A DNA stretch of 64,000 bases from assembly GCA_963816275.1 (NCBI GenBank), contig CAWFJU010000008.1, positions 78,111-142,110 of the forward strand, read 5' to 3'. The DNA comes from an uncultured Actinomycetes bacterium (GTDB lineage: Bacteria > Actinomycetota > UBA4738 > HRBIN12). A program made the translations under genes and the position numbers. The notes under the pieces are model-generated. The model made no database searches. It was not told where the DNA came from and saw nothing but the letters and a program-made list of their open reading frames with translations. This document shows positions 4,728 to 38,904 of the stretch, in pieces; positions within the stretch are counted from its first letter, which is position 1, and each line of letters begins with the position of its first letter.

Positions 4728-6416
4728 TCACCCCTCGCGGCCGAGCTCCTCCAACCGCCGGTCGATCAGGTCGTTCGCGCGGACCGCACTCGGCCGCGAC
4801 CCGGTCACGGCCGCGAGGAATTCGGCGCGGCTGAGCGCCAGCAGCTCGGAGGGTTCGATCGCGGTCACGCTCGCGGTGCGGGGCACGTCACGCAACAGCG
4901 CGATCTCGCCGAACTGATCGCCGTCGGAGAGTTCGGCCACCGCGCGACCATCGGCCTCCACCGACAGGCGCCCGTGCTCGACGACATAGAACCGATCACC
5001 CGGGTCACCCTGACGGATCACGACGGTGCCGGCCGAGACCTCGAGGCGCTCGAGGTTCCGGGCGACCCGCTCAAGCACCGGCTGCGCGAGCGGCGCGAAG
5101 AGCGCGATCCGCCGGAGCGCGACGACCTCGGGTCCGGGCCTCGTCGCCCGGGCCTCGACCAGGCGGAGCTGGGGCCACGCGACCAGTCCCGCCACCGGGA
5201 GGAACGCGCCGGCGACCACGAGCGCCCCCCGGCTCCCGAACCCCGCGATCAGGAGGGGCGCCGCCGCGGATCCGGCCGCCAGCCCGAGCATCACGAGAGC
5301 CTCTTGCACGCCGAAGACCCGGGCGAGCATCTCGTCGGGGACGGATCGCTGCAGGAGCGTACGGGCCGCCACGTCGAAGAAGGTGCGGCCGGCGCCGCAG
5401 ACGATGAGGAACACGATCGCGCCGGGGAGCCCGGCCACGACGATGCCGACCGCGGCGAGGCTCGCTCCGCACACGACGAGGCCGAGCTGCATCGCCGGCG
5501 TGAGGTGCCGGCGGCCGACGAGCGCGACCGAGGCAGCCGCCCCGATCAGCCCGCCGACACCCATCGCCGCGGCGAGGAAGCCGGCGGCCGACTCGCCCAC
5601 ATCCAGCACGTCGATCGCGAGCAGAGCGTAGAAGACATCGAGGAGGCCCACGACCACGAACTGCACGCCGCCGAGGAGGAGGAGCATCGAGGCTCCGGGC
5701 TCGCGCCGGAGCTCACGGGCGCCCGCGGCCGCTGCGGCCACCACGCCCTCGGGGCTGACGTGCTCGGGCTCCGGCTCGCCGGCGCCGTGATGCAGCGGGA
5801 GCTGCACCGTGAGGAGGCTGGCCGTGACCAAGAACCCGGCGGTGACCGCCACGACGAACGCGGGGCCCGCGATCGCGAAGCCCACCGCGGCGAACATCGG
5901 GCCGACGAGCACGCCGACGCCCTCGACGCTGCTCGACGCGGCGTTGGCGGCCGTGAGTTCCTCGGGCGTCTCGGCGAGGTGCGGGAGGATCGCGTTGTGA
6001 ACGGGGCGCGTGAGCGTGATCGCGCAGCTCGCGACGACGGCCGCGGCGTAGGCGGCCAGGGGCGGAGCCTTCCACAGCGCGAGCGCCAGCAGGAGGTCCG
6101 TCGCGGCCTGGATCGCGTAGCCCAGGCCGAGGGCCCGATCGCGGCGCATCCGGTCCCCGAAGGTCGCCCCGAGCGGAGCCACCAGGGCCGCGGGCACGAG
6201 CTGCGCCACGAGGACGAGGCCCGTGACCGTGGCGCCCCCGCGCTGGAACGCGAAGACCGACACGGCGATCCACACCGCCGCCTCTGCCGCGCTGAACTCC
6301 TGGAACGCGAAGAGCACGCGGACCAGAGCTCGGTTCCGCAGGATCGTGAAGAGCACGCGAACGGCGTCTCGGATCGGCACGGCGAGCGCGGACCTTTCTG
6401 AGAGGGCTGCGCGCAT
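4728..6416 (-). CDS. MFS transporter fused to a C-terminal cyclic-nucleotide-binding domain
   Basis: Intact 562-aa ORF. About 420 aa form a multi-TM MFS-like region. The C-terminus then reads RQGDPGDRFYVVEHGRLSV...GDQFGEIALLRDVPRTASVTA, the classic cNMP-binding FGE..L....RTA motif. Confidence 0.85.
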   Translation of the reverse strand: MRAALSERSALAVPIRDAVRVLFTILRNRALVRVLFAFQEFSAAEAAVWIAVSVFAFQRGGATVTGLVLVAQLVPAALVAPLGATFGDRMRRDRALGLGYAIQAATDLLLALALWKAPPLAAYAAAVVASCAITLTRPVHNAILPHLAETPEELTAANAASSSVEGVGVLVGPMFAAVGFAIAGPAFVVAVTAGFLVTASLLTVQLPLHHGAGEPEPEHVSPEGVVAAAAAGARELRREPGASMLLLLGGVQFVVVGLLDVFYALLAIDVLDVGESAAGFLAAAMGVGGLIGAAASVALVGRRHLTPAMQLGLVVCGASLAAVGIVVAGLPGAIVFLIVCGAGRTFFDVAARTLLQRSVPDEMLARVFGVQEALVMLGLAAGSAAAPLLIAGFGSRGALVVAGAFLPVAGLVAWPQLRLVEARATRPGPEVVALRRIALFAPLAQPVLERVARNLERLEVSAGTVVIRQGDPGDRFYVVEHGRLSVEADGRAVAELSDGDQFGEIALLRDVPRTASVTAIEPSELLALSRAEFLAAVTGSRPSAVRANDLIDRRLEELGREG

Positions 6417-6458
6417 CCTCCCGGCCGATCACCGGGCCGGTCAAACCCCGGAACGCGG

Positions 6459-13744: not shown

Positions 13745-14218
13745 CTAGTTCAGCCGCGACAACAGCTGTTCCGGGGCGATGAACGCCTGCCCCGGCGTGC
13801 TCGTCCGGTGGCGGGCCGCGAGGTCCGCCACCGTCGTCTGACGGAACACGTCCTGCACCGCCCGGGCCACATCGGCCCAGAACCCTTGCAGCCCACACCG
13901 TGAGTCCTGGAAGCACGTGTGGTCCGAGGGCTCGAGGCAGAACATCGGGAAGATCTGGCCCTCGATCGCGTCGGCGATCTCGGCCATCGTGATCTCCTCG
14001 GGCGCGCGGGCGAGCCGGCATCCGCCCCCCGCGCCACGGAAGCTCTCCACCAGCCCCGCCTTCGAGAGCGCCCCGAGCTGCTGCTCGAGGAACCGCACCG
14101 GGATCTGCTGACGCTCGGCGATCTCGCGCGCGGGCACGAGGACGTCCTCGTCGCGGTGCTGGGCGAGCTCGATCATGGCGCGCATCGCGTATTCGAGCTT
14201 CTGGGAGATCTTCAGCAC
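13745..14218 (-). CDS. Rrf2 family transcriptional regulator
   Basis: A GTG start at 14218 follows ACAGGAGG. The translation VLKISQKLEYAMRAMIELAQHRDEDVLVPAREIAERQQIPVRFLEQQLGALSKAGLVESFRGAGGGCRLA shows the classic Rrf2 N-terminal wHTH. Cys residues in the C-terminus could bind an Fe-S cluster. Confidence 0.85.
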   Translation of the reverse strand: MLKISQKLEYAMRAMIELAQHRDEDVLVPAREIAERQQIPVRFLEQQLGALSKAGLVESFRGAGGGCRLARAPEEITMAEIADAIEGQIFPMFCLEPSDHTCFQDSRCGLQGFWADVARAVQDVFRQTTVADLAARHRTSTPGQAFIAPEQLLSRLN

Positions 14219-14375: not shown

Positions 14376-14838
14376 ATGGTTCGCGTACTCGTGATCGACG
14401 ACGAGCCCGACGTGCTGCTGCTGTGCCGCGTGAACCTGCGGCACGACGGGCACGAGGTGCTCGAGGCGCCCGACGGCGCGACGGGTCTGGCGATGGCCGC
14501 CGAGTCGCCGCCCGACGTGGTGGTGCTCGACCTGATGCTGCCCGCGATGGACGGCTACGAGGTGCTCGCGGCGCTCCGCGGCTCGGCGGCGACCGAGACG
14601 TGCCGATCCTGGTGCTGAGCGCGAAGGCGCAGGTCGAGGAGCGGCGCCGGGCGTTGCGAGTCCGGCGGCGATGTCGTTCCTCGCGAAGCCGTTCGCGCCC
14701 GAGCAGCTCGCCGAGGCCGTCCGCGAGCTCGCGACGCTCGATCCCGACGGCACGCGCCGAGGCACGGCGAGCGGCGCTCGGGAGCAACTCGAGGACGGAG
14801 CGACCCTGAGCCGAGGTCAGGCGATCGTGGCGGCGTAG
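14376..14838 (+). pseudogene. stand-alone response-regulator receiver (CheY-like), 3 frame changes; 3' end uncertain
   Basis: The segments are MVRVLVIDDEPDVLLLCRVNLRHDGHEVLEAPDGATGLAMAAESPPDVVVLDLMLPAMDGYEVLAALR, then GDRDVPILVLSAKAQVEERRRAL, then ESGGD., then FLAKPFAPEQLAEAVRELA. The shifts lie near 14588, 14657 and 14675. Confidence 0.7.
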
Positions 14839-15810: not shown

Positions 15811-17998
15811 GTGTCCGAGGGTGAGCGGATGACGAGCGCGGACGACGGACGATTCAGGTCGGTCGCGCAGCTCGACATGCTGCACAGCCTCGCCGCCAAG
15901 CTGAACGCCCTGGGCGACGTCGCCGAGATCGGCGCGGCGATCACGGCCGAGCTCCGCACGATCATCGACTACCACAACTGCCGCGTGTATCTGCTCGAGC
16001 CCGACGGCGTCACGCTGATGCCGATCGCGTTCCGCGGCGAACTCTTCCACGAGTACGAGGAGGAGACGCTCGAGGAGCTGATCACGAAGGTGGGTGAGGG
16101 GCTGACGGGCCACGTCGCCGCGACCGGCGAGTCGCTGCTCACCCCGAACGCCCAGGAGGTCGAGTTCTCGATCCAGATCGAGGGGACCGACGACATCGTC
16201 GAGTCGATGCTCGTGGTCCCGATGAAGCTCGGCGAGCAGGTCACCGGCGTGATCGTGCTCTCGAGCCTCGGCTACGGCAAGTTCGACGAGGAGGACCGGC
16301 GCCTCCTGGAGGTGCTCGCCTCGCACGCCGCGGTCGCGTTCGAGAACGCCACGCTGCTCCAGGCGGAACGCCATGCGGCCGAGACCTCGGCCGCCCTGTT
16401 GCGCCTCTCCCAGGCGCTCACGAGGATGCGCTCGATCGGCGACGTCTTGCAGGAGGCGCTCGAAACGATCCCATCGCTCGCACCCTGCTCCGTCGCCGGG
16501 GCGTACGTGGTCGAGCCCTCGTCGGGAGACTTCCGGCTCGTCCGGCTCCACGAGGTGATCGAAGGCACCGCCCGTGCCAGGGCCGAGATCGCCGACGTCT
16601 CGCACGAGGTGGCTGACCGCATGCTCCTGAGCCAGACGTCGACCCGTTCGTGATCGAGGACGCCGCGATCCGGGAGCTCCCGCACGAACTCTTCATCGCG
16701 ATCGATCCCAACGAGGTGCTCGTCGCGCCGCTCCGCTGGGATCCCTCAGGGTTCGGCGCGCTCGTGCTCGTGGCGCCCCAGGGCGCTCGGCCGTACGGGG
16801 CGGAGGACCTACGGATGGCGGGGGGCCTGGCCGACATCACGTCGCTCGCGCTCGGGAACGCACGCCGTCTCTCCGAACTCGAGCGGTTCCACGAGCTCGT
16901 CGAGAGCCTCGATGCGGTCTTCTGGGAGGCGGACGCCACCACCCTGTCCTTCACCTTCCTCGGCGGAAGGGCCGAGGAACTGCTCGGCCCGACGGCGCTC
17001 CGGTGGCCGAGCCGAGCAGCGGCCCTGGGGCTCGCACATCGACCCGCAGGACCGTGGCGACGCGATGGAGGCGATGCGCCGGGCCGCGAGCGAGGGCCAC
17101 GACCAGGAGCTCGAGTACCGCATGCGAACCCCCGAGGGCGAGAACGTCTGGATCCGCGACCTCGTCGCACGTGGTGACGGGCGCGCAAGGCGCCCGACAA
17201 CTCCGGGGACTCATGGTCGACGTGACCGAGCGCAAGCGCGCGGAGCAGGCACTCCGTGAGAGCGAGCGGAAGTACTCGGAGGCGTTCAAGCGAGAGCGCG
17301 AGGCCGCCCAGCGGCTCCGGGCGCTCGACGAGATGAAGAACACGTTCCTCGAGGCCGTCTCGCACGACCTCCGCACCCCGCTCACCTCGATCCTCGGATC
17401 CGCGCTGACCCTGGAGCGGACGCGGATGGAACTCCCCCGCGAGGACGCGGTCGATCTCGTCCACCGGATCGCGGCGAACGCCCGCAAGCTCGAACGGCTG
17501 CTCTCGGACCTGCTCGACCTCGACCGGCTGCAGCGCGGGATCGTGTCACCTCAGCGACGGCCGACCGAACTCGACCTGCTCGTGCGCCGGGGCGTGGAGG
17601 AGACCGAGAATCCGAGCGGACACACGATCGAGGTCGAGGTCGAGCCGGCCGTGGTCTCGATCGACGCCGCGAAGGTCGAGCGGATCCTCGAGAACCTGGT
17701 CTCGAACGCGATCCGTCACACCCCGGCGAGCACCCGGATCTGGGTTCGAGCGCGGGCTCAGGACGGCGGCATGCTCCTGATCGTCGAGGACGAGGGGCCG
17801 GGCGTGCCGAGGGACCTGCACGAGGCGATCTTCGAACCCTTCCGGCAGGTGCCGGGCTCGGAGTCGGGCCACTCGCCCGGGGTCGGCGTCGGACTCTCGC
17901 TCGTCCTGCGGTTCGCCGAACTCCACGGCGGCCGTGCCTGGGTCGAGGACCGACCGGGCGGCGGCGCGATCTTCACGGTGTTCCTGCCCGCGGGATGA
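15811..17998 (+). pseudogene. GAF-GAF-PAS sensor histidine kinase (HisKA + HATPase_c), 3-4 frame changes
   Basis: The first GAF domain is in ORF 15811..16653 (IIDYHNCRVYLLEPDG...GLTGHVAATGESLL). The second GAF-like region is in ORF 16650..17177. PAS fragments (HIDPQDRGDAMEAMRRAASEGHDQELEYRMRTPEGENVWIRDLV) lie in a third frame. The kinase core is in ORF 17003..17998 (EMKNTFLEAVSHDLRTPLTSI...NLVSNAIRHTP...DEGPGVP...GVGVGLSLV). The shifts lie near 16632, 16995-17020 and 17165. Confidence 0.85.
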
Positions 17999-18007
17999 GG
18001 ACGTGAA

Positions 18008-18044
18008 GGACCGGGCGGCGGGGGGTACGGCCGCCGCCCGGTCC
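18008..18044. terminator. 14-bp GC hairpin between convergent genes (histidine kinase and DsrE2-like)
   Basis: GGACCGGGCGGCGG-9nt-CCGCCGCCCGGTCC. Confidence 0.45.
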
Positions 18045-18048
18045 CGAG

Positions 18049-18068
18049 CTCCCGGATATGTCCGGGAG
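18049..18068. terminator. second small hairpin in the same convergent gap
   Basis: CTCCCGGA-TATG-TCCGGGAG. Confidence 0.35.
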
Positions 18069-18085
18069 CGATCCGCCGATCGCCT

Positions 18086-18619
18086 CAGATGAACAGCGTG
18101 ACGGCGTCGCGAGCCTCGAGGAGCGCGGTCGTCGCGCCCGCCGGCTCCTCGAGCCCATCGATCAGGTCTTCCTTCGTGAGGCCCGAGCAGGTCCATCGTC
18201 ATCTGGCACGGGACGAGGTGGACACCCAGGTCGCGCGCGACCTCGAGCAGCTCCGCCGGCGAGGCCACGTGGTGCTCCTCGGCGAGCTTCTTCATCATCG
18301 CGGGGCCGGCCCCGGCGAAGTTCATCTTGCCGAGCTTCAGGTGCTCGGTGCCGCCGCGGTTCATCATCGACATCATCTTCTGCATCCAGTTCTCGCCGGT
18401 GATGTGCACGTCGTTGCGCACCAGCGGGAAGAGCCCCCAGAAGGTGAAGAAGATCGTCGTCTCCATGCCCATCGCGGCGCCGGTCGTGCCGAGGATGAAC
18501 GTCGGCCAGATCTTGTCGAGGTCGCCGCTCCAGGCCATGATCACGAGCTTGTCGTGCGGCACGTGCTCGGGCGCCGGAGCTCGCTCCGGCGCCTCGAGGG
18601 TCGCTTCGGTGGTCGCCAT
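18086..18619 (-). pseudogene. DsrE2-like (DsrE/DsrF family) sulfur-relay protein with a hydrophobic N-terminal half; single frameshift
   Basis: MATTEATLEAP...KLVIMAWSGDLDKIWPTFILGTTGAAMGMETTIFFTFWGLFPLV...GVHLVPCQMTMDLLG, then LTKEDLIDGLEEPAGATTALLEARDAVTLFI in a second frame. One extra C in GGGCCTCAC near 18180 explains the break. Confidence 0.75.
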
Positions 18620-18624
18620 CGTGC

Positions 18625-18861
18625 TCACCCCTTCTTGCGGATCACGAAGCGGAAGACGCCCGCGTCCTCGGTCTGCTCGACGAGCTCGTTCCCCGTCGAG
18701 GTGCACCACGCCTTGAAGTCCGGCACGGAGCCCGGGTCGGTGGCGAGGGACTCGATCAGCTCGCCCGGCTGCAGGTCGCGGATCCCCTGCGCGGTCTTCG
18801 CGATCGGCATCGGGCAGGAGAGCCCCTTCAGGTCCAGCGTCTTGGCGATCGTCTCGGTCAT
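18625..18861 (-). CDS. tusA: TusA/SirA family sulfur carrier
   Basis: 78 aa: MTETIAKTLDLKGLSCPMPIAKTAQGIRDLQPGELIESLATDPGSVPDFKAWC...FRFVIRKKG. The Cys-Pro-x-Pro active-site motif is present. Confidence 0.85.
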   Translation of the reverse strand: MTETIAKTLDLKGLSCPMPIAKTAQGIRDLQPGELIESLATDPGSVPDFKAWCTSTGNELVEQTEDAGVFRFVIRKKG

Positions 18862-18876
18862 CGCGGTACCCCTTCC

Positions 18877-20061
18877 TCAGTGCTCCGTCTCGGCCGATGC
18901 CTTCGGCTTCGAGAACGGTGCGTTCTCGGGGATCCGGCCCTGCGGCACGGTCTCCCAGTACATGCGGTTGAACAGCCACTTCGCCATATGCCAGGCGCGG
19001 TTCGGCTGCGGCGGCACGGGCGGGTGCTCGTAGTCGAACCGCAGCGAGGTCGCCTGGCCGTTGCCGGTCTCGAGGAAGCACATGACGCGGCCGCCGTAGT
19101 TCTCCTTCGGCGCGGTGCCGTGGATCAGCGACGCGATGCGGCTCGCGATCACCGGCGCCTCGAAGTGAGCGGTCGAGCCCGACTTCGAGATCGGCAGGTT
19201 CGTGGCGTCGCCGAGGGCGAAGATGTGCTCCTGACCCTCGACGTTCAGGGTGTGCTTGTCGGTGGGGAGCCAGCCACCGGGGTCGCCGAGGCCGGAGTCG
19301 ATCACGACCTGCTGCCCCTTGTGCGGCGGGACGAGCACCAGGAGGTCGTACTCCTGCTTCTCGCCCTCGAGCGACTCCACGACACCCGCGCTCGGGTCCA
19401 CGGCCTCGACGTTGAAGAACGTCGTCAGCCCGATCCCGCGCTCCTCCATGATCGGCGCGATCAGCTTCGACGCGCTCTCGATCGTGAACGCCCGGTTCAA
19501 CGGGCTGAGGAGCTCAACCTCGCTCTGGTCGCGGATCCCGCGCTTGCGCAGGTACTCCTCGACCATGAACGTGAACTCCACGGGCGCCGGCGGGCACTTG
19601 TACGGGATCCCCGCCACGCCGACCTTGATCCGGCCGCCCTTGAACCGGGCGAGCTCCTGACCGAGCCGCTCGGCGCCGGGCAGGGAGTAGAACTCGAACG
19701 ACCCCTCGGCGAGGCCCGGGATCGACTCGGGCACCAGCCGGGCACCCGTCGCGATCACCAGGTAGTCGTACGCCAGCTCGCCGCCTCGCTCGAGCTGCAC
19801 CGTGCCGGCGTCCGGATGGATGCGGATCGCACGCTCGATCGCGAGGTCGATGCCGCCGCGCAGCAGCGTGCGCTCCTCGCGCGTCAGCCAGTGACCCTTG
19901 GCCTCGCCGAGCGCGACGTAGAGATAGCCCGGCTGGTAGTCGTGCATGCCCGTGGGATCGACCACGGTGACGTGCACGTCATGCTCGAGCTCCTTGTCGA
20001 GCAGGTTCGCGATCAGGGTCCCTCCGACCCCGCCGCCGAGCACCACCACGCGTGCCGGCAT
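18877..20061 (-). CDS. sqr: sulfide:quinone oxidoreductase-like FAD-dependent oxidoreductase
   Basis: Intact 394 aa. The N-terminal Rossmann motif is VVVLGGGVGGT, followed by GIPYKCPPAPVEF, GDATNLP and GGRVMCFLETG. This arrangement of two redox cysteines is as remembered for SQR types III-V. No NADH-site second GxGxxG motif is obvious. Confidence 0.75.
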   Translation of the reverse strand: MPARVVVLGGGVGGTLIANLLDKELEHDVHVTVVDPTGMHDYQPGYLYVALGEAKGHWLTREERTLLRGGIDLAIERAIRIHPDAGTVQLERGGELAYDYLVIATGARLVPESIPGLAEGSFEFYSLPGAERLGQELARFKGGRIKVGVAGIPYKCPPAPVEFTFMVEEYLRKRGIRDQSEVELLSPLNRAFTIESASKLIAPIMEERGIGLTTFFNVEAVDPSAGVVESLEGEKQEYDLLVLVPPHKGQQVVIDSGLGDPGGWLPTDKHTLNVEGQEHIFALGDATNLPISKSGSTAHFEAPVIASRIASLIHGTAPKENYGGRVMCFLETGNGQATSLRFDYEHPPVPPQPNRAWHMAKWLFNRMYWETVPQGRIPENAPFSKPKASAETEH

Positions 20062-20067
20062 CGGGGA

Positions 20068-20346
20068 TCACCGAGCCTTCCGGATCACGAACCGCGTGAA
20101 GCCGTCCTCCTCGACGACCTCGACCAGCTCGTGCTGCGCCTTCTGGACCCACGCGGGGATGTCCGACTTCGAGCCCTCGTCGCTCGAGAGCACCTCGATC
20201 ACGTCTCCGACCTGTCCCTCGCGGATCGCGCCGATCAGCGTCATCAGTGGTCCCGGGCACGCCATGCCGCGGGCATCGATCGAACGCGTTACCACTGCCG
20301 TCGTCTCTCCTGGTTGCACTACCGCATCCGCTCCTTGAGTGCTCAT
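20068..20346 (-). CDS. tusA: TusA/SirA family sulfur carrier (second copy)
   Basis: The start is taken at the internal ATG. The translation is MSTQGADAVVQPGETTAVVTRSIDARGMACPGPLMTLIGAIREGQVGDVIEVLSSDEGSKSDIPAWVQKAQHELVEVVEEDGFTRFVIRKAR, with a CPGP motif. Confidence 0.85.
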   Translation of the reverse strand: MSTQGADAVVQPGETTAVVTRSIDARGMACPGPLMTLIGAIREGQVGDVIEVLSSDEGSKSDIPAWVQKAQHELVEVVEEDGFTRFVIRKAR

Positions 20347-20357
20347 GTCGCTACCTC

Positions 20358-20762
20358 CTAGATGAACGTCACCGGGCCCTCGGCCTCCATGAAGAAGGAG
20401 GCGACGCCCCAGATGCCGTCCACCATCGGGTCGAGATCGTCCTTCGTGATCTCGAACATCTCCATCGAGTCCGCGCATGCCTGGATCTGGACCTCGCCGA
20501 GGTCCTTGGCCTGCGCGAACAGTTCGCTCCAGTGGGTCTTGCCCTGGGCCTGCATCGCCCGCTGCCCGGCCTCGCCGGCCTCGGGCGACACCCCGTGATC
20601 CTTCAGCACGCGGTCGGCACGGAACGCGTCGAGCGCCCAGTACTGGAGGAAGACGTTGACCTTGCGGCCCATCGCCGCGGCCCCGACCGCCAACACCGCA
20701 GCCGCTTGGAGCTTGTCGTCGGTTCCGGAGAACAGCACCAGCGAAACGGTGTCGTCACTCAT
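20358..20762 (-). CDS. DsrE/DsrF-like family protein (soluble, DsrE3-like)
   Basis: The start is taken at the internal ATG. The translation is MSDDTVSLVLFSGTDDKLQAAAVLAVGAAAMGRKVNVFLQYWALDAF...EVQIQACADSMEMFEITKDDL... The conserved Cys context is as remembered for the DrsE_2 family. Confidence 0.75.
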   Translation of the reverse strand: MSDDTVSLVLFSGTDDKLQAAAVLAVGAAAMGRKVNVFLQYWALDAFRADRVLKDHGVSPEAGEAGQRAMQAQGKTHWSELFAQAKDLGEVQIQACADSMEMFEITKDDLDPMVDGIWGVASFFMEAEGPVTFI

Positions 20763-20913
20763 CGCGTACCCCTTTCCGTGTACCCCTGTTCCTATACGAC
20801 AAGCATCCACCGGGCTCGGGACCCGCGTTGGGGGCGGCGGACCCACGGCAGGTGGGACCTTCCGGGACCCAAGGCGGGAATATCGGCGGACGGCCTGAGG
20901 TTCGCGCGGCGGC

Positions 20914-20919
20914 TAGGAT
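20914..20919 (+). promoter_or_regulatory. -10-like TAGGAT hexamer 9 nt before the D-aminoacylase ATG (probable leaderless transcript)
   Basis: GCTAGGATGCCGCTCCGATG. There is no Shine-Dalgarno sequence. Confidence 0.25.
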
Positions 20920-20928
20920 GCCGCTCCG

Positions 20929-22491
20929 ATGCTCGACCTCGCGATCACCGGTGCCTTCGTCGTCGACGGCACCGGTGCGCCCGGGTTCCTCGGATCGGTC
21001 GGGATCTCCGACGATCGGGTGACGTGGATCGGTCGCGGTGCCGCCGCACCGCCCGAGGCTCTGCGGGTCGTCGAGGCAGCTGGGCGTGTCGTCGGCCCCG
21101 GGCTCATCGACGTCCACACGCACTCGGATCTCGGCCCGTTGGTGGACCCGTGGATGCCGAGCACCCTTCGCCAGGGCGTGACGACCGTCGTGGTGGGCAA
21201 CTGCGGCACGTCGCCGTGGCCGGCCGCGGGTGCCGACGAGGCCGCGGCGCTGGTCGGCGGGCCGGCCGGCGCATTCCGCTACGACTCGTTCGGTGGCTAC
21301 CTCGAGGCCCTGGCCTCGTCAGGTCCTTCGGTCAACCTCGCGGCGCTCGTCGGTCACGGCGCCGTCCGATCGGAGGTCATGGGGTTGGAACGCCGACCCC
21401 CGGACGAAGAGGAACTCGGATCGATGCGCCGGCTGGTGGCGGAGGCCGTCAACGACGGCGCGATCGGGATGTCGACCGGGCTGATCTACGTGCCCGGGAT
21501 GTACTCGGACACCGACGAGATCGTCGCCCTCGCGCGCGAGGTCGCCGCCCGGCACGGGATCTACGCGTCGCACATCCGCGGCGAGGGCAAGCATCTCTTC
21601 CGCGCGGTGGACGAGGCGATCACGGTCGGTCGACGCGCCGGGCTCCGAGCACACGTGAGCCACCTGAAGTGCGAATCCGACCTCGTGTGGGGACGTGCCG
21701 CCGAGCTGCTCGAGCGGTTCCACGGCGACGCCGACGTCACGGGCGACCAGTACCCCTACGCCGCCTGGGCGTCGGTCCTCGGGTCGTTCCTCCCCGAGTG
21801 GGCGCCCGTGGGCGACCTGCCCGCGCTGCTGGAGGATCCGGCGACGCGGGCGAGGCTCGCGGCGTCCGTCGAGGATGGCGAAGGCGACTCGTTCCAATCG
21901 TCGGTCAACGGCGTGGGATGGGACCGCATCGTGATCGAGAGCAGCGCCGATGGTCGATGGAACGGGAGGAGTCTGCAGGCGGTGGGCGAGGAGCTCGGCA
22001 TCGCCCCCGTCGACGCCTGCTTCCGGTTGCTCGGCGAGGATCCCGACACCTCCTGCATCGGTCATGCGATGCACGAGGACGACGTCCGGACGATCCTCGC
22101 GGACCCCGAGGTGATGGTGGCGTCCGACGGCGCCTCGATGTCACCCGAAGGCACCCTGGGACGCACGGCGGTCCATCCCCGCAACTACGGCACGTTCCCT
22201 CGGGTGCTCGGCCGCTACGTGCGCGGCGGGGTGATCCCGCTCGAGACGGCGATCCGCAAGATGACATCGTTGCCGGCCGATCGGTTCGGGCTCGGGCACC
22301 GAGGTCGCGTGGTCGAGGGCGCGTTCGCGGACCTCGTGGTGTTCGATCCCCTCACCGTGGCCGATGAAGCGACCTTCGACCAGCCCCACGCGTACCCCAC
22401 CGGCATCGACGTGGTCGTGGTCAACGGACGGATCGCGTGGGACGGAACCCCGGTCGAACGCGCCGGTCGCGTCCTGCGGCGCGGGGGCTGA
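20929..22491 (+). CDS. N-acyl-D-amino-acid deacylase (D-aminoacylase), amidohydrolase superfamily
   Basis: Intact 520 aa: MLDLAITGAFVVDGTGAPG...GPGLIDVHTHSD...GVTTVVVGNCG...GMSTGLIYVPG...YASHIRGEG...HVSHLKC... Confidence 0.8.
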   Translation: MLDLAITGAFVVDGTGAPGFLGSVGISDDRVTWIGRGAAAPPEALRVVEAAGRVVGPGLIDVHTHSDLGPLVDPWMPSTLRQGVTTVVVGNCGTSPWPAAGADEAAALVGGPAGAFRYDSFGGYLEALASSGPSVNLAALVGHGAVRSEVMGLERRPPDEEELGSMRRLVAEAVNDGAIGMSTGLIYVPGMYSDTDEIVALAREVAARHGIYASHIRGEGKHLFRAVDEAITVGRRAGLRAHVSHLKCESDLVWGRAAELLERFHGDADVTGDQYPYAAWASVLGSFLPEWAPVGDLPALLEDPATRARLAASVEDGEGDSFQSSVNGVGWDRIVIESSADGRWNGRSLQAVGEELGIAPVDACFRLLGEDPDTSCIGHAMHEDDVRTILADPEVMVASDGASMSPEGTLGRTAVHPRNYGTFPRVLGRYVRGGVIPLETAIRKMTSLPADRFGLGHRGRVVEGAFADLVVFDPLTVADEATFDQPHAYPTGIDVVVVNGRIAWDGTPVERAGRVLRRGG

Positions 22492-38393: not shown

Positions 38394-38813
38394 TCAGGCG
38401 GTGATCATCGCCTCGACGTTGCGGAGGCGTGCGCAGAGCATCAACATGAGTTCCTTCGTGATCGTGGGGTACCGATCGAGGAACGCGTTGAAGCTCCACG
38501 ACGGGATCACGAGCGAGCGCATCTCGGTCTTCGTCTTCACGGTCGCGGTGCGAGGCTTCCCGTCGATCAGCGAAACCTCGCCGAAGTAGTCACCGGGACC
38601 GAAGGTCGACACGTGCCGCCCGCTGACCTCGATGTCGGCCTCCCCTTCGAGGATCAGGTGGAAGCCCACGGCGGAGTGGTCCTGCTCCACGATCGTGTGC
38701 CCGGCCTCGAGCGAGACCTCCTTCGAGATCTCGAGGATCGCCTTCAGGTCCTTGTCGGAGAGCGAGCTGAACAGGGGAACGGCCCTGAGCGTGGCGATCA
38801 TATCGTCGGCCAT
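38394..38813 (-). CDS. stand-alone cyclic-nucleotide-binding domain protein
   Basis: MADDMIATLRAVPLFSSLSDKDLKAILE...GHTIVEQDHSAVGFHLILEGEADI...GDYFGEVSLIDGKPRTATVKT... Confidence 0.85.
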   Translation of the reverse strand: MADDMIATLRAVPLFSSLSDKDLKAILEISKEVSLEAGHTIVEQDHSAVGFHLILEGEADIEVSGRHVSTFGPGDYFGEVSLIDGKPRTATVKTKTEMRSLVIPSWSFNAFLDRYPTITKELMLMLCARLRNVEAMITA

Positions 38814-38904
38814 GTTGAACCCCTCTCGGTGAACGAGCACCGCGGTGCGCGATGTGGCGCGATTCTAGTCCGAGCGTTCGCCGTCATGCGACCGGCCTCG
38901 CGGG

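Follow-up and report, generated by a model that had tools for sequence, protein, structure and literature searches.

Genes for sulfide:quinone oxidoreductase (SQR) have been reported together with genes for TusA- and DsrE-type sulfur carriers in bacteria and archaea, and the role of these carriers in sqr clusters has been stated as unknown (PMC9918477, PMC11094781). We analyzed a five-gene DsrE-TusA-SQR-TusA-DsrE2 operon on a 64,000-nt stretch of contig CAWFJU010000008.1 from an uncultured Actinomycetes bacterium. This whole stretch is referred to as the window, and coordinates given without a locus name are window positions.

In Methylacidiphilum fumariolicum SolV, the operon MFUM_v2_0219-0221 encodes a type III SQR, TusA, and DsrE2, and its expression was 1.7-fold higher in sulfide-adapted cells oxidizing H2S to S0 (Schmitz et al. 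2023, PMC10205796). This SQR-TusA-DsrE2 order corresponds to the 3' half of the window operon, and in both cases persulfide dioxygenase (PDO) is not adjacent. However, the Methylacidiphilum set has three genes instead of five, has no upstream DsrE-TusA as described, and belongs to a verrucomicrobial methanotroph. Its carriers are annotated only, and the likeness rests on gene order and annotation. In Metallosphaera cuprina, Mcup_1722-1724 encode tusA, sqr, and dsrE4, and the DsrE4 group was defined by its linkage to SQR, downstream of it (Liu et al. 2014, PMC4175335). A role of DsrE4 in the detoxification of reactive sulfur species has been reported as proposed (PMC11094781), and the literature we found held no biochemical work on DsrE4. 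The window shares the TusA gene immediately upstream of SQR and the DsrE-family gene downstream, whereas the Metallosphaera genes are archaeal and only three, inside a larger "sulfur island" with TQO. As for the DsrE4 position, the 177-aa gene lies two genes downstream of sqr in the window but upstream of it in the gene order of Chloroflexota.

Two bacterial clusters combine type II SQR with similar carriers. The Staphylococcus aureus cst cluster encodes CstR, TauE, CstA (a rhodanese-TusA-DsrE fusion), CstB (a PDO-rhodanese), and SQR, and the Bacillus licheniformis yrk cluster encodes SQR with rhodanese, TusA, and DsrE modules and a PDO (PMC9163753, PMC9918477). As in the window, SQR is encoded with TusA-like and DsrE-like carriers, and the role of cst and yrk is sulfide and sulfane-sulfur detoxification. 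Unlike the window, these clusters carry a type II SQR, about 26% identical to the window SQR, and always a rhodanese, PDO, TauE, and a CsoR-type repressor, none of which was found in the window. The rhd-tusA-dsrE2 sets and TusA/DsrE3 cascades of Allochromatium vinosum and Hyphomicrobium denitrificans feed rDsr or sHdr (PMC11094781, PMC4175335). The window has the tusA-dsrE2 pair and, by analogy, may use a similar cytoplasmic cysteine-to-cysteine persulfide relay, but rhodanese, Dsr, and sHdr are absent nearby. In addition, the DsrE2A prototype (Alvin_2601) has predicted membrane helices, whereas none is predicted in the long DsrE2-like protein of the window.

The original prediction from the window sequence had assumed that SQR and tusA-dsrE sets normally occur apart. 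This premise was incomplete, as links between them have been published for Metallosphaera, Methylacidiphilum, Staphylococcus, and Bacillus, and three-gene versions were already noted in 2014 and 2023. Its impression that this exact layout had not been characterized agreed with our search, which found no five-gene block with a defined pathway. Neither the five-gene module nor its spread in soil phyla was found in the literature, with most subscription journals outside the search. The module is an expanded, rhodanese- and PDO-free form of the known SQR-TusA-DsrE linkage, not a new kind of system. We think it rather likely that it is a self-contained sulfide-oxidation module facing the cytoplasm, in which SQR hands its sulfane sulfur to the carriers.

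Operon Layout and Identity of the Flavoprotein

Reading the sequence from 17950 to 20950 gave five co-directional minus-strand genes at 18085-20762, with intergenic gaps of 11, 6, 15, and 5 nt in transcription order. The predicted co-directional layout with gaps of 5-15 nt was thus borne out, and all quoted motifs (IQACADSM, CPGP, KCPPAP, MCF, CPMP, and VPCQMTMD) were found. The operon end, previously placed at 18086, had to be moved to 18085, with the stop codon TGA at 18085-18087. The genes, in order of transcription, are the following.

20358..20762, minus strand: DsrE-up, short DsrE2-family carrier, 134 aa, Cys96 in IQACADSM
20068..20346, minus strand: TusA1, 92 aa from ATG, CPGP motif with Cys30
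18877..20061, minus strand: SQR flavoprotein, 394 aa, C156 (KCPPAP) and C328 (MCF)
18625..18861, minus strand: TusA2, 78 aa, CPMP motif with Cys16
18085..18619, minus strand: long DsrE2-like carrier, 177 aa after repair of a frameshift, Cys138 in VPCQMTMD

The ATG of TusA1 has GGAGG 8 nt before it. An alternative GTG start at 20307, giving 79 aa, is the one called in relatives. Signal peptides are absent from all five proteins, so that all five are expected on the cytoplasmic side.

The flavoprotein carries the FAD-binding GGGVGG near its N-terminus, within VVVLGGGVGGT at residues 5-15. Against Pfam, only the generic Pyr_redox_2 family scored above the cut-off (PF07992, 3e-18). The best curated family was NCBIfam NF049943, type III SQR of the selenoprotein subtype, with 8e-109 over residues 4-375 and 364 bits, a score under the curated cut-off of 525 of this Sec-specific model. 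These scores suggest a type III-like SQR that falls below the curated profile cut-off. Comparison with solved structures by phmmer placed human SQR first at 9e-42, followed by the flavoproteins of flavocytochrome c sulfide dehydrogenase (FCSD) at 1e-25 to 1e-23, Aquifex SQR (type I) at 1.6e-22, and Acidianus SQR (type V) at 3.9e-22. NDH-2 matched at 2e-7 over the N-terminal 130 residues only, the N-terminal third, and CoA-disulfide reductase (CoADR) at 1e-5. The AlphaFold model of the protein has a pLDDT of 92.5. In Foldseek comparisons, it gave TM-scores of 0.89 with human SQR (2.4 Å rmsd), 0.83-0.86 with bacterial SQRs, about 0.8 with FCSD, 0.74-0.77 with NDH-2, and 0.64 with CoADR.

The redox cysteines agree with this ranking. 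C156 (YKCPPAP) aligns with human C201 (VKCAGAP) and C328 (VMCF) with human C379 (TSCPL), and these two are the sole cysteines of the protein. C156 is retained in 88/111 and C328 in 77/111 distant SQR representatives, a set built from 110 full-length representatives of 50%-identity clusters that are 29-58% identical. Sequence, profile, and fold, together with both redox cysteines, identify the flavoprotein as an SQR. The earlier expectations that it would group with SQRs, and not with NDH-2 or CoADR, and that the named cysteines would be conserved in homologs held for the SQR pair, and the cysteine expectation also for the carriers described below (96-100%).

The flavoprotein could instead be an NDH-2, a CoADR, or another oxidoreductase with two dinucleotide folds, and the carriers its unrelated neighbors. 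Pyr_redox_2 standing alone above the Pfam cut-off is compatible with this, as is the name "NAD(P)/FAD-dependent oxidoreductase" given by the sources. Yet SQR matches are better by 20-35 orders of magnitude, the fold ranking runs from SQR through FCSD and NDH-2 to CoADR, both SQR cysteines are there, and the five-gene set is kept across phyla in permuted order. The phmmer E-values and Foldseek TM-scores effectively refute an NDH-2 or CoADR identity, and we give this alternative almost no weight.

The SQR model ends in a C-terminal helix at residues 355-371. On the Wimley-White interfacial scale, the aromatic stretch at residues 355-369 (RAWHMAKWLFNRMYW) ranks far ahead of every other segment of the protein, at -5.1 kcal/mol. 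The same residues did not stand out in an Eisenberg hydrophobic-moment scan of SQR. An interfacial C-terminal helix is as expected of a monotopic quinone reductase, and SQR is predicted to bind the membrane in this way through a C-terminal amphipathic helix.

Sulfur Carriers and the Frameshift in the Last Gene

Each of the four remaining proteins belongs to a sulfur-carrier family. TusA1 and TusA2 matched PF01206 at 1.5e-23 and 2.4e-23, respectively, in line with the two TusA proteins originally named from their CPGP and CPMP motifs. DsrE-up and the repaired long DsrE2-like protein matched PF13686 (DsrE/DsrF/DrsH-like) at 4.5e-17 and 2.4e-45, respectively. The active-site cysteines are strongly conserved among 76-83 distinct homologs per family, with Cys96 of DsrE-up at 100% (76 homologs), Cys30 of TusA1 at 99%, Cys16 of TusA2 at 100%, and Cys138 of the DsrE2-like protein at 96%. 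The curated equivalog models were not reached. Against the NCBIfam DsrE2 equivalog NF047629 (cut-off 210 bits), the long protein scored 88.5 bits and DsrE-up 29 bits, and against the E. coli-type TusA equivalog NF001423 (cut-off 78 bits), the two TusAs scored 45.6 and 55.4 bits. On these scores, the window carriers are family members and not equivalogs of the studied DsrE2 or of the tRNA-thiolation TusA.

Both DsrE-type proteins resemble soluble structures. DsrE-up matched the soluble Sulfolobus DsrE2B structure 2QS7 over its full length at 1e-22, with the active-site Cys in register. It had been described as a soluble DsrE-family protein with Cys in IQACADSM; the solubility and the cysteine stood, and the assignment to classical DsrE gave way to the DsrE2 family (PF13686), with soluble DsrE2B (2QS7) nearest. 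The long DsrE2-like protein matched 2QS7 at 6e-17 and 3PNX at 6e-16, also over its full length and with the active-site Cys aligned, and is a long form with an insertion resembling that of PDB 3PNX. Its highest 19-residue Kyte-Doolittle mean is 1.27, compared with 1.6 in soluble 2QS7, and no transmembrane segment was predicted in the repaired protein. The DsrE2-like identity and the VPCQMTMD cysteine were therefore retained from the original prediction, and the hydrophobic N-terminal half was reinterpreted as the buried core of a DsrE fold instead of a membrane segment. A membrane-anchored DsrE2A reading of this gene was rejected from the hydropathy and the full-length homology to soluble structures.

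The reading frame of the last gene is interrupted once, as had been predicted near 18180. In a DNA alignment, the window has GGGCCTC where five relatives have GGG-CTC, which places the extra C at 18180/18181. Removing one C there restores a single reading frame, and in all related contigs examined the ortholog is an unbroken protein of 177 aa. We also compared the window with the proteins of a locus 89% identical to it (L004). Between 9.0 and 18.2 kb, about ten more frameshifts were found in seven neighboring genes; three of them disrupt a histidine kinase, and others disrupt LytR_C, a response regulator, acetyl-CoA synthetase, PNPOx, and peptidase S9. On the other flank, none of the fourteen genes running from TusA2 (18625) to radA (30111) is interrupted.

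The interruption at 18180/18181 could mean that the operon is decaying here and that the frameshift is a true pseudogenizing mutation. We regard this as very unlikely. On either side of the shift, the gene is 97-99% identical at the protein level to an intact ortholog, and the extra base lengthens a C run. About ten frameshifts in seven genes within 9 kb, with none on the other flank, point to a locally poor assembly. Because the extra C is missing in five relatives and the frameshifts cluster on one flank, it is most likely a sequencing or assembly error and not gene decay, and the earlier suspicion of an assembly error is well supported.

Conservation, Related Architectures, and Surroundings

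Conservation was studied by scanning GTDB representatives, with a single genome for each species. At least 592 genomes have an SQR relative, and the best 80 loci were analyzed by searching all open reading frames (ORFs) with the five window proteins by phmmer. All five genes were present in 70/80 loci. Contig ends interrupt six of the other ten, and only four of the 80 are truly reduced, holding TusA1-SQR with or without DsrE2. The best 80 loci belong to Actinomycetota, Chloroflexota, and Dormibacterota, together with some other bins in small number. Their sole isolate is Chloroflexus islandicus, which has TusA1-SQR only; the rest are metagenome-assembled genomes (MAGs). An sqr gene accompanied by tusA and dsrE genes thus occurs in Actinomycetota and in other phyla. 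Metagenomic SQR relatives number in the thousands. Each of the 120 best clusters is at least 82% identical to the window SQR, and those of their matches that bear a name (the five closest) are MAGs of Actinomycetota.

Two gene orders recur. The first, DsrE-TusA1-SQR-TusA2-DsrE2, is that of the window and was found in 17/19 Actinomycetota/Actinomycetes bins, 4/4 Dormibacterota, and 2 Limnocylindria; one of the two Actinomycetota bins without it lies at a contig end. The second, DsrE-TusA2-DsrE2-TusA1-SQR, was found in about 40 Chloroflexota and one Solirubrobacterales bin. Both orders retain the adjacent pairs TusA1-SQR and TusA2-long DsrE2-like. TusA1 and TusA2 form distinct ortholog groups: the TusA upstream of SQR is of the CPGP type in 81/83 cases across both orders, and TusA2 orthologs carry CP[MLI]P. 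The five genes are co-inherited as a unit with fixed pairs. The symmetric layout highlighted in the original prediction is present, but its special status was lost, since two conserved orders make the symmetric look of the operon incidental.

One actinobacterial locus, L014, was unusual. DsrE-up and TusA2 were not detected in it, and a second, distant SQR-like gene (E 9e-28) lies at L014 8584-9732 on the minus strand, opposite to the module and 0.6 kb downstream of the DsrE2-like gene.

Scanning metagenomes with aligned distant SQR representatives gave further architectures of the same SQR clade, namely DsrE-TusA-SQR, DsrE2-TusA-SQR, and TusA-SQR. A lower-GC branch (L101-L126) has no TusA; downstream of its SQR (~410 aa) come a 105-aa TusE/DsrC-like protein with PKPKGCI at its end and, next, a DsrE2-like protein of 167-198 aa (for example, L111 706-2778 and L126 4001-6192). 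Three representatives of the clade (P0155, P0211, and P0195) carry C-terminal fusions. In two of them, SQR is fused to DsrC/TusE, and one cluster is from Mobiluncus (P0211). The C-terminal DsrC/TusE-like domains of these fusions hold a penultimate Cys, with the endings PKPRGCV and PKPVGCI. The third representative is fused C-terminally to a CBS-domain pair. Of twenty distant SQR representatives looked up, all but the Mobiluncus fusion bear the labels Euryarchaeota, Thermoplasmatota, and Asgard MAGs.

Several distant clusters have named hosts. The Haloarcula marismortui megaplasmid pHMA288 (L169) encodes TusA-DsrE2-like, GATase, and TusA-SQR, with the TusA and SQR genes overlapping by 4 nt. Its TusA-DsrE2-like and TusA-SQR pairs recall the second order, and its SQR is about 42% identical to that of the window, a likeness based on annotation only. 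Unlike the window, this cluster adjoins a rhodanese-metallo-beta-lactamase fusion, YeeE (YeeE/YedE), and thioredoxin, and no DsrE-up homolog was detected; the 132-aa protein after the Haloarcula SQR was considered for this role and rejected. The rhodanese-metallo-beta-lactamase fusion is likely a PDO. Halopiger has TusA-SQR-DUF1641 with YeeE nearby, and a plasmid of Ca. Chlorohelix (L168) has TusA-SQR-rhodanese-glutaredoxin beside TusA-DsrE-TrxB. Haloarcula and Ca. Chlorohelix, as cultured carriers of such clusters, are possible experimental hosts and may give hints to the sulfur sink.

In the window, the operon lies within a housekeeping region with radA, carD, ispDF, clpC, lysS, folate genes, ftsH, and tilS. 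The ORFs scanned in the 64-kb window yielded neither PDO, rhodanese, TauE, Hdr, Dsr, or Sox domains nor a regulator of the CstR/SqrR/BigR type, consistent with the originally claimed lack of classical SQR or tusA-dsrE2 partners nearby.

These surroundings bear on an assimilatory route. In this alternative, SQR converts environmental sulfide to a TusA persulfide for tRNA thiolation, the molybdenum cofactor, and other thio-cofactors. TusA would act as in E. coli, and detoxification and energy gain would not be the purpose. The biosynthetic role of TusA is established, the operon sits among housekeeping genes, and PDO, rhodanese, TauE, or an oxidizing enzyme were not found nearby among the window ORFs scanned. 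However, both TusAs fall under the E. coli-type equivalog cut-off (45.6 and 55.4 vs 78 bits), and four dedicated carriers exceed the biosynthetic need. In related clusters, linkage to YeeE, to an ArsR-type regulator, and to a rhodanese-PDO fusion also suggests that the handling is dissimilatory or detoxifying. We consider the assimilatory route quite unlikely and retain sulfide detoxification with energy gain as the preferred role.

Two features outside the genes may bear on the expression of the operon.

18008..18069, strand not assigned: two perfect hairpins, the first with a 14-bp and the second with a 9-bp stem, arms 18008-18021/18031-18044 and 18048-18056/18061-18069, 100% complementary
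20839..20859, minus strand: GGTCCC-N9-GGGTCC, an imperfect inverted repeat located 77-97 nt before the first start codon

The hairpins separate the stop codon of the operon from that of the convergent histidine-kinase gene and are probably bidirectional terminators. Internal terminators within the operon were not found above chance expectation. Between 17500 and 21500, zero matches to Rfam elements or riboswitches were obtained at E <= 1. A scan for sigma-70-type promoters found nothing, as expected for an actinobacterium of 70% GC. Of about 30 loci with the window order, about 10, Dormibacterota included, have a repeat of the form GGNCCC-N(3-16)-GGGNCC at 88-124 nt before the first gene (L003, L004, L012, L021, L029-L031, L034, L041, and L044). 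Its chance level is 7% of random 203-nt windows. The repeat at 20839-20859 is a weak lead toward a shared operator.

In 30 loci with the second order (L033, L035-L087; for example, L069 1126-1467), a gene for an ArsR/SmtB-family helix-turn-helix protein (~115 aa, PF01022 2e-16) lies 10-30 nt upstream of the module. This gene adjoins the module only in the second order and not in that of the window. A single cysteine of the protein, within the motif VAC..MRG, is near-invariant. Against solved structures, Rv0081 was its best match, with BigR at 3e-12, SqrR at 2e-8, and many metal sensors matching too. An assignment as a BigR/SqrR-type persulfide sensor was not possible with one clearly conserved cysteine and matches to metal sensors as well. 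We take the presence of the gene in these 30 loci as supporting regulation by sulfur species.

The surroundings of the operon hold further regulatory genes. A gene at 15829-17995 on the plus strand, convergent to the operon, encodes a GAF-PAS-HisKA kinase, and 14 actinobacterial loci retain it in this position. Within 4 kb of the operon lie a receiver-only response regulator (14376-14745, plus strand) and an Rrf2 regulator (13748-14218, minus strand). In Bacillus licheniformis, the PAS kinase NreB senses H2S and controls sqr (PMC9918477). Two other window genes are unrelated to the operon, a fusion of an MFS transporter with a cyclic-nucleotide-binding domain (4728-6428, minus strand) and a separate small cNMP-binding protein (38394-38864, minus strand).

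Proposed Sulfur Handover and Its Meaning

From its family membership, we infer that SQR would oxidize H2S at Cys156/Cys328 and pass the electrons via FAD to the quinone pool. The SQR-bound sulfane sulfur would then be neither freed as polysulfide nor given to a small thiol. Instead, TusA1 (CPGP) would take it from SQR as a cysteine persulfide, as suggested by the invariant adjacency of the two genes and the fusions in relatives. TusA1 may pass the sulfur to TusA2 with the long DsrE2-like protein and to DsrE-up, the order of these transfers being a guess, and TusA2, the long DsrE2-like protein, and DsrE-up would buffer the sulfur and hand it on. The net effect would be detoxification of sulfide with a gain of energy, while the reactive sulfane sulfur is kept protein-bound. 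Candidate sinks are a PDO elsewhere in the genome, an sHdr-type oxidizer, biosynthetic acceptors, and deposition as S0. In the haloarchaeal relatives, the rhodanese-PDO fusion would be the obvious candidate.

The handover from SQR to the carriers is supported because the TusA1-SQR adjacency is invariant and SQR-TusE/DsrC fusions occur in relatives. The DsrE-TusA-SQR, TusA-SQR, and SQR-TusE/DsrC-like-DsrE2-like sets of distant relatives, the 4-nt overlap of TusA and SQR in Haloarcula with its neighboring genes, and the Ca. Chlorohelix cluster lend it further support. The direct transfer to TusA/DsrE carriers suggested by the original prediction was strengthened by these comparative data and is still inferred. 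The Methylacidiphilum sqr-tusA-dsrE2 operon rises on sulfide as cells oxidize H2S to S0 (PMC10205796). While SQR is acting, rhodaneses keep sulfane-sulfur stress in check (PMC9163753), and the protection from free sulfane sulfur proposed for the module would be analogous to that given by rhodaneses in SQR-PDO systems.

Several points weigh against this handover model. The score of the flavoprotein lies under the type III cut-off, and its use of quinone and its binding to the membrane are predicted only. No final sulfur sink was seen in the operon or the 64-kb window. Direct transfer from SQR to TusA is not known for any SQR. The Caldivirga type III SQR and Sulfurimonas SQR homologs are reported to couple sulfide oxidation to quinone reduction (PMC10205796), and a carrier may be dispensable. 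In Metallosphaera, DsrE2B reacted with no sulfur compound tested and TusA carried thiosulfonate, not persulfide (PMC4175335); the cargo here could therefore be thiosulfonate.

Thiosulfonate cargo also bears on a reversed direction of flow. In this alternative, the flavoprotein receives protein-bound sulfane sulfur or thiosulfonate from the carriers, and carrier-bound sulfur, not free H2S, is the substrate. The enzyme could then be a quinol- or quinone-linked persulfide/trisulfide reductase or oxidase, in the manner of enzymes with DsrC as co-substrate. A DsrC/TusE-like domain, which is a co-substrate in Dsr systems, is fused to or follows SQR in some relatives, and genes for thioredoxin, thioredoxin reductase, and glutaredoxin adjoin the Chlorohelix and haloarchaeal clusters. 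Both TusA and DsrE3A of Metallosphaera carry thiosulfonate and not persulfide (PMC4175335). Against such a reversal, the cysteine pair and the fold match sulfide-oxidizing SQRs, type III SQRs are reported to couple the oxidation of free sulfide to quinone reduction, and the Methylacidiphilum operon is H2S-induced during H2S consumption (PMC10205796). We judge reversed flow unlikely and keep the transfer of sulfur from SQR to the carriers as our working model.

Our findings bear on how SQRs outside glutathione-using lineages dispose of sulfane sulfur. The module is compact and strongly conserved, and with its fixed pairs and the fusions in relatives it offers a clean test system. That a protein and not a small thiol is the SQR acceptor is directly testable with five small recombinant proteins. 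In Actinomycetota, Chloroflexota, and Dormibacterota of soil, the module may also be of importance to the turnover of sulfide and to persistence. As a tentative and rather doubtful generalization, type III-like SQRs as a rule might be protein-coupled, with a dedicated CPGP TusA or a TusE/DsrC-like protein as the obligate acceptor. If true, dominant soil phyla would scavenge H2S for energy independently of PDO. All of the sulfane sulfur would then stay on proteins, giving a new entry point to cytoplasmic sulfur-relay networks.

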